DNA of 64,000 nt from a virus, in the IMG/VR virus record IMGVR_UViG_3300025362_000005, positions 1 through 64,000 of that record; one strand, 5' to 3'. Positions 8,691-43,075 of the stretch are shown piece by piece (positions within the stretch are counted from its first letter, which is position 1; each line of letters starts with the position of its first letter). A program made the position numbers and the translations under genes. The notes beneath the pieces were generated by a model. It did no database searches, was not told the origin of the DNA, and worked only from the letters and a program-made list of their open reading frames with translations.

Positions 8691-9815
8691 TCATATAGTT
8701 CTGAAGCTGTTAAATCGGGTTTCACCATGTGCCCCCACTATTTGTACCTGCGTTTTAGTAAATAAATCCCAAAAGTAACTTTGTGCAGTAACAGTTGTAT
8801 TATTCAGTTTTTTATATACATACCCCGAATACGGTTTCTTAATAATACGGTTTATATCAGCACGACTCAACCCATACTCTATCACGTGTTCAAATGCTTG
8901 TCCACACACAGTTACATATGCTTGTATAGCTTTTTTAACATTTAAAAAATCATCTGCATATTCAGGAAAATAACTTAAAAACTCTACGTCTTCTCCACTT
9001 TGAAGCAACCCAAGTACCTTCCTAACAGTTAGAACCCCTTCCCCCTTTATATGATGAGCGAGTACGTACTCAGGAGACTTTATTTTAATTCTATTGAAAT
9101 TTTCATCACATACCACATAGCCTTCCTCATCATACCCTAGTTTAGTGCTTGCAGTTATACAATCATCAGCATTGCTAAAAGTATAACTTCGTGGACGATC
9201 AAACCCTAAAACACTTGCACCATCTTCAATACCAGTATAATTAAGTATACGACATAAGAAATACATATTAGTTTCGTCATATGGCACTACTACACGGTTA
9301 TAAACACTTACTATTTCAAAAAGATATGTAGCGTTTTTATTGAATTGCTCAAATATAGGTATCTGATTTGCATAGGTATTTAGCATGTGGTTAGTAACCA
9401 GCTCACCAAAACTATTATACTCCCCTATCTGACTCGGTAAATCACTATCAAAGGCATCTATACATCCACTAGTAGCTATACACCATTTATTGTCGTGGTA
9501 ATAAAAACGGATTAAACTGCCATCTATTTTCTCGGTAATTGTAGCAGAATTCCAATCAATAGCATGTGCTTGGGGTTCGCCTACATTAAAGAAACGATAG
9601 AATCCACGACACACAATATCGTAGGTAACAGCGTTTAAAATCACACCCCTACATTGATTTGTTAAATGACATTTAGGGGAGTTAAACTGATGATATTTCA
9701 GTAATATCAAACCGTTTTTCTCACTTATTTTCATATTGTAATCGTTTCGCAGTACCTCTAATGCATTTTCTACAGTTCTTAAAAATGTTTGCAAGTCATA
9801 ATTATCGTATTTCAT
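8691..9815 (-). CDS. RNA ligase 1 (T4 Rnl1-like)
   Basis: CRG, RFFN.GE, motif I EKIDGS, FE, EGYVV, RIKIKS.EY; adjacent to PNK. Confidence 0.88.
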   Translation of the reverse strand: MKYDNYDLQTFLRTVENALEVLRNDYNMKISEKNGLILLKYHQFNSPKCHLTNQCRGVILNAVTYDIVCRGFYRFFNVGEPQAHAIDWNSATITEKIDGSLIRFYYHDNKWCIATSGCIDAFDSDLPSQIGEYNSFGELVTNHMLNTYANQIPIFEQFNKNATYLFEIVSVYNRVVVPYDETNMYFLCRILNYTGIEDGASVLGFDRPRSYTFSNADDCITASTKLGYDEEGYVVCDENFNRIKIKSPEYVLAHHIKGEGVLTVRKVLGLLQSGEDVEFLSYFPEYADDFLNVKKAIQAYVTVCGQAFEHVIEYGLSRADINRIIKKPYSGYVYKKLNNTTVTAQSYFWDLFTKTQVQIVGAHGETRFNSFRTI

Positions 9816-17471: not shown

Positions 17472-18484
17472 TATTTCTTCCTTAATATTTTAATAAATAA
17501 AGAACTGACTTCATTACGTGCACACAAAAAACATCCTATCTTATCCTCTAGTAAATACATGGTACCTTCTCCTGCTTTCAAACACTTTAAAAACATATCC
17601 ACTGGTATAGTATAAATATTATCTTTTACATTTTCACTGACGTAATCCACGTGCTCAGTAATTTTATCACCACTTATAGACGCTATAGTCAGGTCTTTAT
17701 TAGTGCGTAGTGAAAATACTTGATGTTGATCATCATTCACACTGGTACTAATTTGTACACGGTTGATAGCATCAAGCACAGCCTGTGTGTCGGCAATAAC
17801 TATTTTATGAGTAAAATCTGACTTAGGAGCGAGGACTTGATTAATTACATTTAATGGATACTCCATACCAATACGTAGTTTAAACCCTATTATTGCTTCA
17901 TCGGTATACACATATAGAAATCCTTGGGTAATGGCATAATGTGTGAGATTTTGTAGATTGATGATTGTTTCACAGGCTTCACGTGGTAGCCAAAACGATG
18001 TGCCAAAAGGAGAGGCTATTTTATACACTCCTATATCACGTGCATTCAACATATATGCTGTATCGTCATCGACATAAACCCCACTTACTGCTTTCTTGTG
18101 ATTCTGAAATCTGACTATTCCCAACATTTCCAAGAAATCTGTGGGTAGTGGTGTGCGTACAAGGTTATCAGGGAATACTGTTTTCTTATAGAGTGCTAAT
18201 GCATCTTCTTGCTTACGAAAACTTGCTTTATTTCTGCCGTATTTCACGAGTACAAGACTTGGGTCATCAATAAATATAGAATCCTCTACTGTAATTCTAC
18301 TCAGTAGTGTACCAAATTTCTGTGCATCGATACTACCTGTTACTGTTAAATCTGTTACTGCTTTTACTGCCATCAACCCATTGTATGCAAACACTTCCTC
18401 GTTTTCAAAATACAGGGTGTTACTACCTGCTAGTTGTGTGGCGTTCTTAGTTGTTGCTTTTAACGCTAATTCAATACTGTTCAT
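17471..18484 (-). CDS. putative sliding clamp (DnaN-like)
   Basis: 337 aa beta/alpha repeat pattern, AYNG, SGVYV, EYP; directly upstream of polA with a DnaX-like loader elsewhere in the arm. Confidence 0.6.
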   Translation of the reverse strand: MNSIELALKATTKNATQLAGSNTLYFENEEVFAYNGLMAVKAVTDLTVTGSIDAQKFGTLLSRITVEDSIFIDDPSLVLVKYGRNKASFRKQEDALALYKKTVFPDNLVRTPLPTDFLEMLGIVRFQNHKKAVSGVYVDDDTAYMLNARDIGVYKIASPFGTSFWLPREACETIINLQNLTHYAITQGFLYVYTDEAIIGFKLRIGMEYPLNVINQVLAPKSDFTHKIVIADTQAVLDAINRVQISTSVNDDQHQVFSLRTNKDLTIASISGDKITEHVDYVSENVKDNIYTIPVDMFLKCLKAGEGTMYLLEDKIGCFLCARNEVSSLFIKILRKK

Positions 18485-22844: not shown

Positions 22845-22918
22845 AACGCCATAAGAGATTCGAACTCTTACCCTGAGATTGGAAATCTCACATGCTAACC
22901 GTTAAACACCAATGACGC
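22845..22918 (-). tRNA. tRNA-Gly(TCC)
   Basis: Acceptor stem GCGTCAT/ATGGCGT, anticodon arm TGAGA-TTTCCAA-TCTCA, T arm AAGAG-TTCGAAT-CTCTT; CCA not encoded. Confidence 0.93.
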
Positions 22919-22993
22919 GTGGTCGGGCAATTTTGTCAATCTCTCTACGGCTACCCCGAATCTCCTTAGTTCATTTGGGAATGACCCAACCTC

Positions 22994-23064
22994 TAACAGG
23001 AACAGAGTACGATTCTGTATCTACGGGTCTATGAATCCCGTGCTCTACATTGAGCTATCCTGCT
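22994..23064 (-). tRNA. tRNA with CAT anticodon (Met/Ile2), atypical
   Basis: Acceptor AGCAGGA/TCCTGTT, D arm GCTC-AATGTA-GAGC, anticodon arm CGGGA-TTCATAG-ACCCG, T arm ACAGA-ATCGTAC-TCTGT. Confidence 0.8.
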
Positions 23065-23108
23065 ATGAATCAGTTTTATCCCACCCACCTATAGAAAGTG
23101 GGACTAAC

Positions 23109-23528
23109 AATACACTGGCATACCGGAAGCCTTATGTTTTTTACATGGGGCGTGTCTACCGCCATAACATTCAAGATTTAAGCCACACCATCCACCGTGT
23201 ACTTGAAACGACCCGTCCATCTTTGGTAGCTTATAACGAAAGCGTTTTTAAACCAACATCTTCAAACGCCCTTTCGGGTAAAGGCTACAGACCCATAGGC
23301 TATGTAGCTCAATCCACTTTGTAGAACCTAACAGCTCATCTAAGCCATTACAACTTTGATTTTGGATTCTATACCTCAAGGACTCTGGTTTGTTCTACAG
23401 TACTATAGTCCCTTTTTCTGCGACTTTAATTGTATGGGGGTGGTAAATTGCTACCCTTATAAAACTCCACCAACACAGCTTCCATACACTGTGGTGGCTT
23501 CAACGTCTACTAAATACAACTAGTGTAC
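23109..23528 (-). ncRNA. large structured ncRNA (~420 nt), possibly ROOL-like
   Basis: No convincing ORF; closing stems TACACT/AGTGTA and GAAGCC/GGCTTC, many internal helices, two pseudoknots, GAAA tetraloop; lies between tRNA-like genes. Confidence 0.7.
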
Positions 23529-23532
23529 TTAC

Positions 23533-23632
23533 TGGAAGTGAGGGCATTGCAGCCCTGTCCTATAAAATCTCAGGCTGTTTTCTCGTGCATTTAACCTTCA
23601 AATGACTTTATAGTCGAAACTATTACACTCCC
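23533..23632 (-). ncRNA. miniature tmRNA (tRNA-like domain only)
   Basis: 5' GGGAGTGTAATAGTTTCGAC; P2 CTATAAAGTC/GATTTTATAG; GAC-AGGGC-TGCAAT-GCCCT-CACTTCC-A 3'; G3.U70 pair and discriminator A. Confidence 0.8.
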
Positions 23633-23637
23633 TTCTT

Positions 23638-23925
23638 CTAAACGATTCTCCATTCATACACACTATTACCTGTTTTAAACTTTATGTAGTTTTCAGTTTC
23701 CTCAATAATTTCAGTTATGTAGCTTGTTTGCCACCAGTCTTGATGGCACATTGTACGCCCTATAATACTTCCTACTCTTATTGCTACCCCTACTCGTGGG
23801 CGTCCACTGTTTTCAAACTCTATATCCCCATCTGCTTCCCACAGTAAAGTACTCATACCACCCCTGTCGCCAGCATCATCTCCAACTCTTTTTAAACTAT
23901 ACATCTTACCCATTCCTTTTCCCAA
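23638..23925 (-). CDS. hypothetical protein
   Basis: ORF ending WWQTS.I.EI.......FKTGNSVY, a pattern seen in phage proteins. Confidence 0.55.
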   Translation of the reverse strand: MGKGMGKMYSLKRVGDDAGDRGGMSTLLWEADGDIEFENSGRPRVGVAIRVGSIIGRTMCHQDWWQTSYITEIIEETENYIKFKTGNSVYEWRIV

Positions 23926-25014: not shown

Positions 25015-26115
25015 TCATAGAGTAGCGTTTTTACGCTCAAACTCAACAGCATATTTTCTGCTCTTTGCTTTAAAACCTATGTGCTGATCTGTAGTACTTC
25101 TCCACACCACGCCTTCACGTTTGACGACCTTGCCATTGTTTTTAAACACAGAGTCGCCATCGGCTTCCGCAAGTATTTCTTCAAGTGTTTGTGGTAATTT
25201 ACTAGGGAGTATAAAAGGCACCATTTGCAATTTAGTTATTTCACAGAAACGTATTAAATCATCTACATTGAGTACTTGACCCGTATCCACCTTAGTTACT
25301 TTGTACACAAATAGTTTTTTGTTGGTAAATCCATAGATATTGCCTTGAATACCTGTGCCACAGATTTCACCCTGTATACACCAATTACCTCGTATGTCTT
25401 TTAGGATGGCCTCTATATTTAGTTCACGTCCTAATGTCTCCCATGTACCACCGCCTTTATTATCTCGCATTACATTATGAGAATACACACGGTATTTCCC
25501 CTTAACCAACATATAGCTTACTGCTTGACCCTCTAGTTTCTCTGTTTTGTAGAAAAGAGTGTCACCATAGTTAGCCTTGTATTTATTGAACAGCTTTTGT
25601 ATGTTTGTTTCATCAGATTTCTGCACTGTAGCGGGATAGTTTTTATTCACACGCTTCTTTAAAAACAGTTTTCTGAAAAAGCTATAACGCAATAACATCT
25701 TCATAAATCGTGAACGCTTCTTAGTGCTACTGGTTGCCCTTTCTTTCAGTTCCTCAACATCATACTTTTGTACCCCCAATATTTCAGTGACATCTACCCC
25801 TTCTTTTACCTTCGTGGATTCGGGTAAAATAGATGTATTAAACACAATACCACTGCTGTATTCTCCTGACATTTTCATATTTTTGATGCGAAAGCCTTGG
25901 AAACCCTCACTCCAACACCGTTTTCTTAAAAACTCAAACTCAGGTCTTACAGGTAAAATGGTATCGTATTCACAAAATACTACTAAATCACCTACTTGAA
26001 ACTCATTTTTCCCTACTATTACTGGATAGTTTTCTACTGTTGCAAGCTCAATTCTATCCTTGCCTTCTATAGGGCGCAGTGTTTGTATGACTGCTATTTT
26101 TGCTAAATCTCGCAC
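25015..26115 (-). CDS. RNA ligase, DRB0094 family (OB-fold + Rnl2-like)
   Basis: PIEGKDRIELATV...F.VGDLVVFCEYD, KSDE..IQ, TEKLEG, IQGEICG.GIQGN, REGVV, FKAKS. Confidence 0.88.
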   Translation of the reverse strand: MRDLAKIAVIQTLRPIEGKDRIELATVENYPVIVGKNEFQVGDLVVFCEYDTILPVRPEFEFLRKRCWSEGFQGFRIKNMKMSGEYSSGIVFNTSILPESTKVKEGVDVTEILGVQKYDVEELKERATSSTKKRSRFMKMLLRYSFFRKLFLKKRVNKNYPATVQKSDETNIQKLFNKYKANYGDTLFYKTEKLEGQAVSYMLVKGKYRVYSHNVMRDNKGGGTWETLGRELNIEAILKDIRGNWCIQGEICGTGIQGNIYGFTNKKLFVYKVTKVDTGQVLNVDDLIRFCEITKLQMVPFILPSKLPQTLEEILAEADGDSVFKNNGKVVKREGVVWRSTTDQHIGFKAKSRKYAVEFERKNATL

Positions 26116-28203: not shown

Positions 28204-29085
28204 TCAGCCAAACTTTGTCAATAGCTGATTCATGTATTCTTGAGATTGTTTTTCACTTAGTTCTCCGGGGTCGTTTACGCCACACTCTGCTAGTAGGGTG
28301 TTATTGACAGATACTGAGCATCCCATCATGTCCAGCTCGATTGCTAGTTTATTTGCTGATCTTTGGGCTGGTTTTTCGTTATCAAAAAGGATGATTGTGT
28401 GTTTGTCTAGTCTAGCAATTTCATAAGATTGGGCTTTGGTATATGATGTACCGAACGTACATACGCTATTGTCTCCTAAACGCCAGACATCGGTTATACC
28501 CTCTACGATTACAATTACATTATTAAAAATATTGTCAATATTATATAAAATCTCCTTATTATTCATTATGGCTGACTCTAAAGGACAGTTTTTGTAAAAC
28601 TTTTGCCTAACGTCTCTTTCCTGAAAGGATACGATTTGATGTTGGTAGTACACTGGTATTACTATTTTATAACCATCGCTACGCAAATCGTACTTGGTTT
28701 TGATGACCCCTGCATTAAACCCCCTACTTCTCAAGAAATCTCCGTGACTCTTTTTGATTGGTTTATTAGAAATTTTGAATTCTGATTTCTTTATAGTTTG
28801 GGCTTTATCAACATAGACAACGTCATCACTTGAATACTCAGCAATTATCTTATACGCTTCTTTAGCACTTACATTGAGTATATCTTGTATATAGTTGTTT
28901 AGTGAGTGCCACCCCGTTTTCCAGCTTGAAAGGTATCCCTTGCTTTTGTGAAAACCGAGGTGGTATGAGGTGTCATTTACAGCATAGATGTCCATCAGCC
29001 CAACATAGTTTTGAGAGATGTTCTTGCCTGTTAATGAGTAAAGAATTGAGTGGTCGTCACAGAATTGTACCATATCAAAGGCCAT
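28204..29085 (-). CDS. DNA primase (TOPRIM)
   Basis: FLRSRG, IVIP, FQER, LYN, IVEGITDV, FGT, FDNE, DPGEL. Confidence 0.88.
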   Translation of the reverse strand: MAFDMVQFCDDHSILYSLTGKNISQNYVGLMDIYAVNDTSYHLGFHKSKGYLSSWKTGWHSLNNYIQDILNVSAKEAYKIIAEYSSDDVVYVDKAQTIKKSEFKISNKPIKKSHGDFLRSRGFNAGVIKTKYDLRSDGYKIVIPVYYQHQIVSFQERDVRQKFYKNCPLESAIMNNKEILYNIDNIFNNVIVIVEGITDVWRLGDNSVCTFGTSYTKAQSYEIARLDKHTIILFDNEKPAQRSANKLAIELDMMGCSVSVNNTLLAECGVNDPGELSEKQSQEYMNQLLTKFG

Positions 29086-42454: not shown

Positions 42455-42934
42455 TTATTCGTAGTTTCTTGTTCGTTTAAAAAACCGTTGAACCCTATAA
42501 GCTATGGTGTCAGTGAGGCCATATAACCCGTCAATATTAAAGTAGTTAAGGCGTTGCCAGTATAGTATATCACTATCATCATCCAATATTACATAGTCGT
42601 TAAATTCTGATGGAGTACACGGTAACATATCAGCATTATCATGTAACCATTTATAGATAAGGTTGCCTCGTAGTACATGGAAAGGGATATTGTGTTTATC
42701 CGTCATTCCCACTATTTCACCGGTAAATCCTTTTGTCTCTAGTAACGCTTGTATTTCAATAATGGTGTCAAAACTCATTCTCCATGTAGATGTAATTACT
42801 ACTTTTGCTTGTGTTACATCCATAAGTTTATTTAGTGTTGTCATACATCTAGGCAATATGGGGCGTACTTCTCTAGGGGTCTCAGTTGTACATGTGTTGA
42901 GTACCCCATCTATGTCTAAAAATATAAGTTTCAT
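42455..42934 (-). CDS. HAD-domain protein (RNA-repair-associated type)
   Basis: IFLDIDGVLN, VITSTWR, RG..I..WL, YVILDDDSD, GLT. Confidence 0.85.
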   Translation of the reverse strand: MKLIFLDIDGVLNTCTTETPREVRPILPRCMTTLNKLMDVTQAKVVITSTWRMSFDTIIEIQALLETKGFTGEIVGMTDKHNIPFHVLRGNLIYKWLHDNADMLPCTPSEFNDYVILDDDSDILYWQRLNYFNIDGLYGLTDTIAYRVQRFFKRTRNYE

Positions 42935-43075
42935 CCTTTACTCCTGTTTGCAATAAATGCTTCTAAATTCTCATAAAATGATTTACTGTCTTTTGAAATA
43001 CCAACAATACGTATTACTTCATCATATTCCATATCATAATCATTTGCTGTTTGCCATATATTAAATTCTGCCATT

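Follow-up and report, generated by a model that had tools for sequence, protein, structure and literature searches.

The minus strand at positions 23533–23632 of a 64,000-nucleotide stretch of viral DNA (the window; positions 1 to 64,000 of IMG/VR record IMGVR_UViG_3300025362_000005) encodes an RNA that is very probably a tag-less, one-piece mini-tmRNA, i.e. a transfer-messenger RNA (tmRNA) reduced to its tRNA-like domain (TLD) with the acceptor, D-loop analogue, start of P2, and T arm predicted from its sequence. The window is part of a 90-kb record that is 76% complete and derives from salt-lake metagenomes. Taken as a whole, the observations are best explained by a TLD-only mini-tmRNA that interferes with ssrA tagging in the host, a reading to which we give a probability of roughly 60%. 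The TLD-only kind is already known from mycobacteriophage DS6A, mitochondria and plastids, and judged by its sequence the window copy is a divergent member of 100 nt whose T-loop is atypical, which lacks CCA and whose orthologue is of the alpha type. The RNA is not a chance resemblance, since a model built without the window sequence finds it as the sole match, and it is not an assembly artefact, since an independent contig (L122) and contigs from salt-lake sequencing runs agree with it.

Structure of the window RNA

An initial annotation, made from the sequence without database searches, had proposed an alanine-acceptor TLD with no pseudoknot ring or tag open reading frame (ORF), and the anatomy of the minus strand reads exactly as it described, with the minimum free energy (MFE) fold in agreement (Table 1). 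In the reverse complement of the gene the acceptor GGGAGUG/CACUUCC forms seven base pairs including G3.U70 and is followed by the discriminator A, P2 (CUAUAAAGUC/GAUUUUAUAG) has ten pairs with one G.U, and the T stem AGGGC/GCCCU has five; A73 is followed by GUA instead of CCA. The MFE structure is this three-helix junction together with a 5-bp hairpin within the insert (−28.4 kcal/mol, z −2.87; 2 of 200 shuffles are equally stable), and 27 of the 27 predicted pairs are intact. There are three G.U pairs, G3.U70 among them, and the RNA strand is therefore the minus strand, which is also that of the neighbouring genes.

The TLD features found in the window RNA are G3.U70, A73, a stemless D-loop ending in UCGA, P2, GAC and a T arm, the T-loop being atypical. 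Both acceptor strands are in the standard order, and the absence of a tag ORF and of a pseudoknot ring, the unpermuted order and the length of 100 nt are those of the TLD-only form (~60–105 nt). Only 34 nt lie between the P2 strands; an mRNA-like domain is absent, and with it the resume codon, the tag ORF, its stop codon and the pseudoknots. The D-loop analogue (UAAUAGUUUCGA) has the same 12-nt length in most members of the family described below, and the AG in place of the D-loop GG, which had been suspected as a sign of decay, is nothing of the kind: AG-NN-UCGA is both the family norm and the alpha_tmRNA consensus.

The insert includes UAAAUGCA, which matches the resume context of the permuted tmRNAs of relatives and had been read as a possible relic of a resume codon. 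That reading does not carry over to the relatives of the RNA itself, as UAAAUGCA is missing from the orthologue in the sister phage L094 and from most of the family; there is also no in-frame stop after the GCA of the 34-nt insert. Because of these two observations we do not take it as a functional codon, and it is possibly a relic.

Relationship to tmRNA

The tmRNA affiliation was examined with a covariance model (R3) of 50 IMG/VR members of the family, from which the window, L122, L093/L094, DS6A, and all isolates were left out; the E-values of our models are rough because calibration was short. R3 finds the window RNA at full length and as the sole match in the 64-kb window (49.3 bits, E 1.7e-9), and it also finds L094 (55.8 bits), the DS6A TLD (62.7 bits), and the Streptomyces phages LuckySocke (69.3 bits) and Shaeky (69.8 bits), while a real phage tRNA-Ala used as a control scores 24.3 bits. 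Because R3 finds both the window RNA and the DS6A RNA, and DS6A has the interior module of the family (see below), we regard the two as belonging to one family.

The connection extends to the Rfam tmRNA model RF00023, which matches members with canonical T-loops end to end (model positions 1–374; L306, 73.9 bits; L230, 72 bits; LuckySocke, 57.1 bits; gathering score 47) and scores 34.9 bits on member L263. In DS6A, our positive control, RF00023 finds 28478–28560 with both ends matched and the middle skipped (43.2 bits, E 7e-14); the gene is unannotated in the DS6A record. A model of the window and L094 sequences finds the RF00023-matching members in turn (e.g. L306, 38.9 bits, E 2e-8). The initial annotation had expected the Rfam tmRNA and mitochondrial tmRNA models to hit both ends of the window RNA with the middle deleted; for the former this is what is seen in L306, L230, LuckySocke and DS6A and not in the window copy, and the latter (RF02544) gives no match at E≤10 on the window record, with 29 candidates scored. 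The R3 score, the covariation with the orthologue (see below) and the relatives that pass RF00023 together bear out the proposal of a tmRNA-derived TLD without tag ORF or pseudoknots.

A similar layout is apparent in the alpha_tmRNA consensus, shown on Novosphingopyxis ssrA, which reads GGGGgCG-AAAuAGGAUCGA-CG... on the 5′ side and ...CG-GAC-CCGGG-GGCgGUA-CCCGG-CGcCUCC-ACCA on the 3′ side, the same architecture as that of the mini RNAs.

An orthologue in a sister phage

Homologues of the ORF upstream of the RNA were aligned and 160 encoding loci were fetched, and a model from the window sequence alone gives an 81-nt match in L093/L094 (L094:3487–3567; 36.8 bits, E 2e-8). L094 has the same gene order as the window, with a hypothetical protein that is 92% identical, an RNA ligase (76%), the 88-aa upstream protein (68%), and a downstream ORF (66%), and the drum-like RNA and tRNA(CAU) follow the mini-tmRNA there too. 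The two RNAs have GGG, G3.U70, A73, AG-NN-UCGA and GAC in common and differ in two pairs of the acceptor, three of the T stem and three or more of P2, each time on both sides, giving at least eight compensatory changes. The insert is 34 nt in the window RNA versus 15 nt in L094, and the L094 T-loop, GGCAGUA, is of the alpha_tmRNA consensus type (GGCgGUA). It had been considered that close relatives might all carry a full-length tmRNA at this locus, implying a recent deletion; the closest relative, L094, has the mini form.

More distant phages that share the upstream protein have full permuted tmRNAs with tags such as AANDNSSVEFALAA (...ALAA), and that of L017 has a GGCAGUA loop. Among relatives of the upstream protein, a scan of 50 whole records with model R2 found only this permuted tmRNA of L017, and R3 found only a tRNA-Ala in 100 loci.

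A family of phage mini-tmRNAs

A degenerate pattern derived from the window and L094 led to a third member, L174, and a general pattern in which GGG, RGNNTCGAY, GAC, the loop KGCARTA and TCCA are fixed and every stem position is N matched 35 viral contigs in IMG/VR, compared with about one expected by chance by our own estimate. When the T-loop was loosened to KKCRRNN at least 119 viral contigs were matched; the census is pattern-biased and this count is a lower bound. Among the matches listed, 128 of 145 loci have all seven acceptor pairs and all five T-stem pairs at positions left free by the pattern, and these correspond to 97 distinct sequences, mostly of 77–82 nt. CCA is encoded in 36 of the 97 and C74 is present in most, neither being part of the pattern, and ARAGORN calls none of them (0/97). 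Inserts in the family range from 14 to 45 nt, and the 6-nt UGCAAU loop of the window resembles the 7-nt T-loops UGCAAUU, UGCAAAU and UGCAACU of ~14 distinct members.

The helices covary throughout. A 12-sequence model-fitted alignment has 97% of cells paired versus 67% in shuffles, with 18 pairs changing on both sides; in 500 shuffles neither the paired share nor the covariation score is ever as high as observed, and slid controls are 36–48% paired. A MAFFT alignment of 50 members has a covariation score of 0.889 versus 0.195, and over both alignments 97–97.5% of cells are paired versus 63–67% in shuffles. P2, whose pairing was not used in selecting members, is 93% paired in the MAFFT alignment with double changes at 7/7 pairs. 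Phage homologues with covariation, which the initial annotation had named as the thing to search for, are thus present in number, most of them somewhat shorter than the window copy.

Most members, including DS6A, have an interior module after P2 that consists of AAAR, a 3–4-bp hairpin (often CCG-CAUG-CGG), and GGA(A) (alignment A6, columns 27–47); the window copy has a larger variant of it. One member, L193, has a second, degenerate TLD-like copy directly 3′ of its mini-tmRNA (L193:~2012–2114), with the acceptor GAAGCCG/CGGCUUC (A3-U70, and so without alanine identity) and the T-loop GGCGGUA; this copy resembles a tandem duplicate in the course of divergence or decay.

Several cultured phages carry the RNA. 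LuckySocke (OR725497 ~17977–18054; L334:1491–1568) and Shaeky (MT701595 ~42932–43010; L338:391–469) each have a clear unannotated mini-tmRNA in a tRNA cluster, and a third Streptomyces phage, GiJojo (PP725410 17035–17102), is a member by sequence match alone, with a 'hypothetical protein' gene (gene 44) annotated over the stretch. Pseudomonas phage SM1, Ruegeria phage RpAliso and Mycobacterium phage Shandong1 have weak R3 scores and tRNA- or attP-fragment-like sequences, and are not counted as members.

A pattern scan of the genomes of 185,579 species returned 14 stretches. Twelve of these (L209–L215, L217–L219, L221, L222) are in Erythrobacteraceae, other Sphingomonadales or an unclassified alphaproteobacterium and have a near-identical 3′ half ending GGCAGUA-CCCGG-CGGCUCC-ACCA; L209 (Novosphingopyxis), the single one tested, scores 237 bits as a permuted ssrA gene. 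In the alphaproteobacterial contigs a hairpin upstream in the acceptor piece (GCCGG-UUUCGA-CCGGC) mimicked the 5′ half of the pattern. The other two stretches are a mis-binned phage-like contig and a chance match. On this evidence the one-piece mini form is essentially phage-specific. We note that a contig in a Methanobrevibacter metagenome-assembled genome has a 106-nt mini-tmRNA (L216:6023–6128) followed by four bacterial-type tRNAs, and this is probably a phage contig in the wrong bin.

Genomic context

The independent contig L122 carries the mini-tmRNA unchanged. A single contig of salt-lake run X2 covers the entire stretch with zero differences, and shorter contigs from runs X5, X7 and X9 cover portions of the RNA stretch, also with zero differences. 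One variant contig in the salt-lake DNA runs differs in the adjacent ORF and not within the RNA; with no variant inside the RNA among the contigs of these four runs, there is therefore no population-level covariation. None of the sequencing runs listed for the locus is an RNA run.

Table 1. Features of the mini-tmRNA and its neighbourhood in the window
Feature	Coordinates	Strand	Evidence or remarks
Whole mini-tmRNA (TLD-only) gene, 100 nt	23533..23632	-	Sequence, fold, independent family model R3
Acceptor 5′ strand GGGAGUG, with G3 of the G3.U70 pair	23626..23632	-	Sequence, fold; acceptor covaries across family
D-loop analogue UAAUAGUUUCGA, 12 nt, without D stem	23614..23625	-	9/12 match to alpha_tmRNA consensus AAAuAGGAUCGA
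P2 helix 5′ strand CUAUAAAGUC	23604..23613	-	Fold; family covariation
34-nt insert with 5-bp hairpin AGGUU/AGCCU, in place of pseudoknots and mRNA-like domain	23570..23603	-	Fold
P2 helix 3′ strand GAUUUUAUAG	23560..23569	-	Fold; family covariation
GAC junction ahead of T arm	23557..23559	-	Agrees with tmRNA consensus
T arm AGGGC, UGCAAU, GCCCU (6-nt loop)	23541..23556	-	Sequence, fold
Acceptor 3′ strand CACUUCC and discriminator A73, CCA not encoded	23533..23540	-	Sequence
Upstream 88–95-aa ORF (phrog_38150)	23638..23925	-	Stop 5 nt ahead of RNA; synteny anchor
Drum-like structured RNA, same cassette	23423..23508	-	RF02958, 31 bits (gathering score 43); kept in L094
tRNA(CAU), same cassette	22993..23065	-	ARAGORN, Rfam
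tRNA-Gly(UCC), same cassette	22845..22918	-	ARAGORN, Rfam

The mini-tmRNA heads a run of RNAs on the same strand, composed of the sub-threshold drum-like RNA, tRNA(CAU) and tRNA-Gly (Table 1), and there is no promoter or terminator signal above chance between the cassette RNAs. The drum-like RNA (RF02958) is directly downstream of the mini-tmRNA both in the window and in L094 (L094:3631–3723, 32.3 bits) and sits in a ~470-nt non-coding stretch preceding tRNA(CAU). The phage also encodes two RNA ligases, one of the PHA02142/RNA_ligase type (25015–26115, minus strand) 1.4 kb upstream, and one that is Rnl1-like (phrog_562; 8691–9815, minus strand). Homologues of the first are at L094:1706–2809 and at L234:1451–2521, the latter ~2 kb from a mini-tmRNA in an unrelated 208-kb contig, and DS6A has an RtcB-like ligase; the ligases may link the mini-tmRNA to RNA repair. 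Loci reached through the RNA ligase contained no mini-tmRNA homologue by nhmmer, ARAGORN or covariance model, and queries with the DnaB-like helicase and the single 95-aa protein returned no loci.

The 88-aa protein encoded upstream belongs to a family (phrog_38150) with an invariant DWWQT..ITEI motif that is widespread in aquatic phages, often beside tRNA clusters (loci L013–L172), and it is 1–2 kb from full permuted tmRNAs in L017, L018, L021–23, L029, L116 and L120. It was not found at other mini-tmRNA loci, and the idea of a dedicated partner was dropped for this reason. The commonest family type lies in T7-like contigs, with replication genes on one side and the small terminase on the other, and a tyrosine integrase is present in four of 50 family carrier records.

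Comparison with known systems

The initial annotation had placed TLD-only forms mainly in organelles, and this was too narrow, as phage DS6A is already in the literature, being listed as 'TLD only' by Hudson, Lau & Williams (2014, PMC4131195) and repeated as the one phage case, 'Phage__Mycobacterium.9', in a 2025 database paper (PMC11915505). The DS6A RNA (JN698994 28478–28560) is, like that of the window, phage-encoded and in standard order, with G3.U70 and A73, a stemless D-loop analogue, a T arm, and a short P2 hairpin that replaces the pseudoknots and tag ORF. The DS6A RNA is the shorter of the two, at 83 nt; its T-loop is the canonical UUCGAUU, and it comes close to passing RF00023. The window RNA has 100 nt, 34 of them in the insert, a 6-nt UGCAAU loop and no match to any Rfam tmRNA model; its orthologue in L094 has the alphaproteobacterial T-loop type GGCAGUA. 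The host of DS6A is an actinobacterium, whereas the window phage is from salt-lake metagenomes.

The alphaproteobacterial permuted tmRNAs (RF01849/RF04321) resemble the window RNA in the D-loop analogue (AAAuAGGAUCGA versus UAAUAGUUUCGA), the C-G start of P2, GAC and G3.U70/A73, and their GGCgGUA T-loop is common to L094 and many family members. However, they are circularly permuted, ~320–400 nt long, and specify a tag with resume and stop codons, whereas the window RNA is a single piece in standard order with no ORF or pseudoknots. The jakobid and oomycete mitochondrial tmRNAs (RF02544) and the plastid tmRNAs that lack a coding sequence (PMC11915505) are likewise reduced to the TLD with no tag ORF and with SmpB in trans, as we read the window RNA, but are of organellar origin and a different sequence family. 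A two-piece tmRNA is also known from a phage, the OM43 phage Melnitz (PMC9004378). Finally, tRNA-Ala has the same G1-G2-G3.U70 acceptor, A73 and T arm, and the window RNA is likewise expected to be a substrate of alanyl-tRNA synthetase (AlaRS), RNase P and the CCA-adding enzyme; it differs in having no D stem or anticodon arm and a GAC junction for the variable loop.

Possible interference with trans-translation

Under the established identity rules of tRNA-Ala, a minihelix bearing G3.U70 and A73 is what RNase P, the CCA-adding enzyme and AlaRS require. In the established TLD–SmpB structures, SmpB binds tmRNA at the D-loop analogue, at the elbow and at the upper end of P2. The window RNA keeps all of these features. 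By analogy with known systems, we see about an even chance that its mode of action is the suppression of ssrA tagging by competition for SmpB, AlaRS and EF-Tu. The mini-tmRNA would share a transcript with the ORF upstream and the RNA/tRNA cassette downstream, and would then be excised by RNase P and 3′ processing enzymes, supplied with CCA by a host enzyme, charged with alanine via G3.U70/A73, and bound by SmpB of the host. We propose action through host SmpB because no SmpB gene is present in the window record or in any of 50 other records that carry a family member, of which 12 have a completeness of 90% or more. Competition with the host tmRNA for SmpB (and AlaRS/EF-Tu) would then suppress ssrA tagging of nascent proteins during infection. 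The RNA might be a pure decoy, or it might enter stalled ribosomes and accept the peptide without a degradation tag, and either route would give a net reduction of ssrA tagging; no tag could be added because the 34-nt closed loop cannot serve as a template. That the phage has two RNA ligases and tRNAs is consistent with an infection during which RNAs are damaged, and ribosomes stalled, by nucleases of the host. A TLD-only molecule is reported in PMC4131195 to inhibit tmRNA whether chargeable or not, and Mao et al. 2009, as cited there, is quoted as finding that a similar molecule 'strongly inhibits tmRNA, perhaps by titrating SmpB'. By analogy, this DS6A-type result points to dominant-negative interference with trans-translation; the retained charging determinants, often accompanied by CCA, would leave open ribosome entry and tag-free rescue as well.

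Several observations count against interpreting the window RNA as a TLD-only mini-tmRNA that interferes with tagging. It is not called by ARAGORN at normal thresholds with tRNA, tmRNA, intron or mitochondrial settings, and relaxing these to -ps70/80 yields only nonsense permuted tmRNAs or intron tRNAs on the element. No Rfam family matches the element at E≤10, including tRNA, tmRNA, alpha_tmRNA, tmRNA_permuted and mt-tmRNA, and RF00023, RF01849 and RF04321 have no match at this threshold anywhere in the window or the 90-kb record. The element also has a T-loop of 6 nt and no encoded CCA, and most family members have a shorter insert. The patterns used to collect the family demanded G1–G3, U70–C72, A73, RGNNUCGAY and GAC, and the invariance of these bases in the pattern-derived set is therefore by construction; the independent witnesses for G3.U70 are the window, L094, DS6A, LuckySocke and Shaeky alone, and all keep it. 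The window record lacks a full tmRNA as well as SmpB, a CCA-adding enzyme, Pth and any RF-1/ArfB domain, but it is 76% complete, and a full tmRNA or SmpB may be elsewhere in the genome. In sequence similarity searches, blastn of the element and surroundings against isolate phages gave nothing relevant, and an exact 23-mer scan of IMG/VR with the element gave zero matches.

The strongest alternative, which we consider possible and less probable than competition, is that the RNA is a tag-free rescue RNA. With host SmpB and EF-Tu, an alanylated TLD would enter stalled ribosomes and accept the chain, and drop-off and hydrolysis would free the ribosome with the protein untagged. This overlaps with the reading we prefer, invoking ribosome entry rather than titration, and would help a phage whose host cleaves mRNAs or tRNAs, a stress at which the two RNA ligases and the tRNA cluster hint. 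It is favoured by the retention of G3.U70 and A73 in L094, DS6A, LuckySocke and Shaeky, all of which were found without these bases being forced, and by the encoded CCA in 36 of the 97 distinct members and C74 in most. Organellar tmRNAs without a coding sequence are likewise found together with SmpB, and a role in dealing with incomplete mRNAs is attributed to them (PMC11915505). Against it, a TLD-only molecule is reported to inhibit tmRNA regardless of its chargeability (PMC4131195), the record has no release factor-like, ArfB or Pth gene that would complete the reaction, and there is no known route for release of the ribosome from a peptidyl-TLD.

An improbable alternative is that the RNA is a tRNA-shaped processing signal or mimic, with no role other than to recruit RNase P and RNase Z to cut the RNA cassette or to act as a decoy for host nucleases that target tRNAs. 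The position of the RNA 5 nt past a stop codon and at the head of a gap-poor run of structured RNA and tRNAs, together with the lack of above-chance promoters or terminators between them, would suit such a signal. However, processing requires just an acceptor/T-arm minihelix, and this leaves unexplained the tmRNA-specific D-loop analogue, GAC and P2 that are common to DS6A and the RF00023-positive members, and many members are away from tRNAs, e.g. those in T7-like contigs.

A decaying remnant, i.e. a tmRNA gene that has lost its middle and is drifting without function in the window phage, is marginally less probable again. The 6-nt T-loop, the absence of CCA and of an Rfam tmRNA match, the full permuted tmRNAs of distant relatives sharing the upstream protein, and the resemblance of UAAAUGCA to the resume context of those tmRNAs could all be read in this way, and decay was a caveat of the initial annotation. 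We judge it unlikely because the helices are intact, at 27 of 27 predicted pairs, and the orthologue shows compensatory evolution, with every helix of L094 retained through at least eight compensatory changes despite flanking proteins at 66–92% identity. The RNA also has zero differences across the covering contigs of four salt-lake runs, whereas one variant contig differs in the adjacent ORF. Furthermore, because the tmRNAs of the relatives are permuted, a simple internal deletion cannot yield the gene order of the window.

The weakest alternatives, which we regard as very improbable, are an unusual tRNA (an intron-bearing tRNA(UUG) or a D-stem-less tRNA-Ala) and an attP copy of a host ssrA fragment. 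A D stem could be drawn from AUAG/CUAU, and an anticodon stem from AAGUC...GAUUU with AUUUGA as its cap, but the alternative D stem is not conserved in L094, no family member has a 7-nt anticodon-like loop, ARAGORN with intron or mitochondrial settings is empty at normal thresholds, the Rfam tRNA model (RF00005) is silent, there is no cloverleaf with a D stem and 7-nt anticodon loop, and R3 gives a real tRNA-Ala 24 bits versus 49 for the window RNA; at the sequence level these refute both forms of tRNA. Fragments resembling the 3′ part of ssrA are present beside integrases in some isolates (e.g. Shandong1), but an attP origin does not fit because so few of the family records (4 of 50) have a tyrosine integrase and the commonest type is in T7-like contigs amid replication genes and the small terminase; moreover, both acceptor strands are present with lineage-specific compensatory changes, unlike an attP core.

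Implications

Trans-translation is nearly universal in bacteria and is a target for antibiotics. To our knowledge, how phages handle it is poorly known. The window RNA represents the same device as that of DS6A in an unrelated salt-lake phage, and in a form invisible to ARAGORN and Rfam. Tracing it led to well over a hundred unannotated relatives, including those in the cultured Streptomyces phages LuckySocke, Shaeky and GiJojo (the last by sequence match). The literature that we searched describes only DS6A among phages, and the breadth of the phage mini-tmRNA family appears to be unpublished. With cultured isolates in hand, the question of decoy versus tag-free rescue is testable at the bench. 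We tentatively raise the possibility that TLD-only mini-tmRNAs are a widespread and overlooked phage counter-measure against trans-translation, in which each lineage copies the style of its host's tmRNA TLD (canonical versus GGCRGUA T-loops), and in which phages of hosts with two-piece tmRNAs have joined the two halves again as a single small RNA. With SmpB, AlaRS and EF-Tu of the host, the RNA would then convert tagging rescue into tag-free rescue or a block, and phage proteins might be shielded from ssrA-directed proteolysis.

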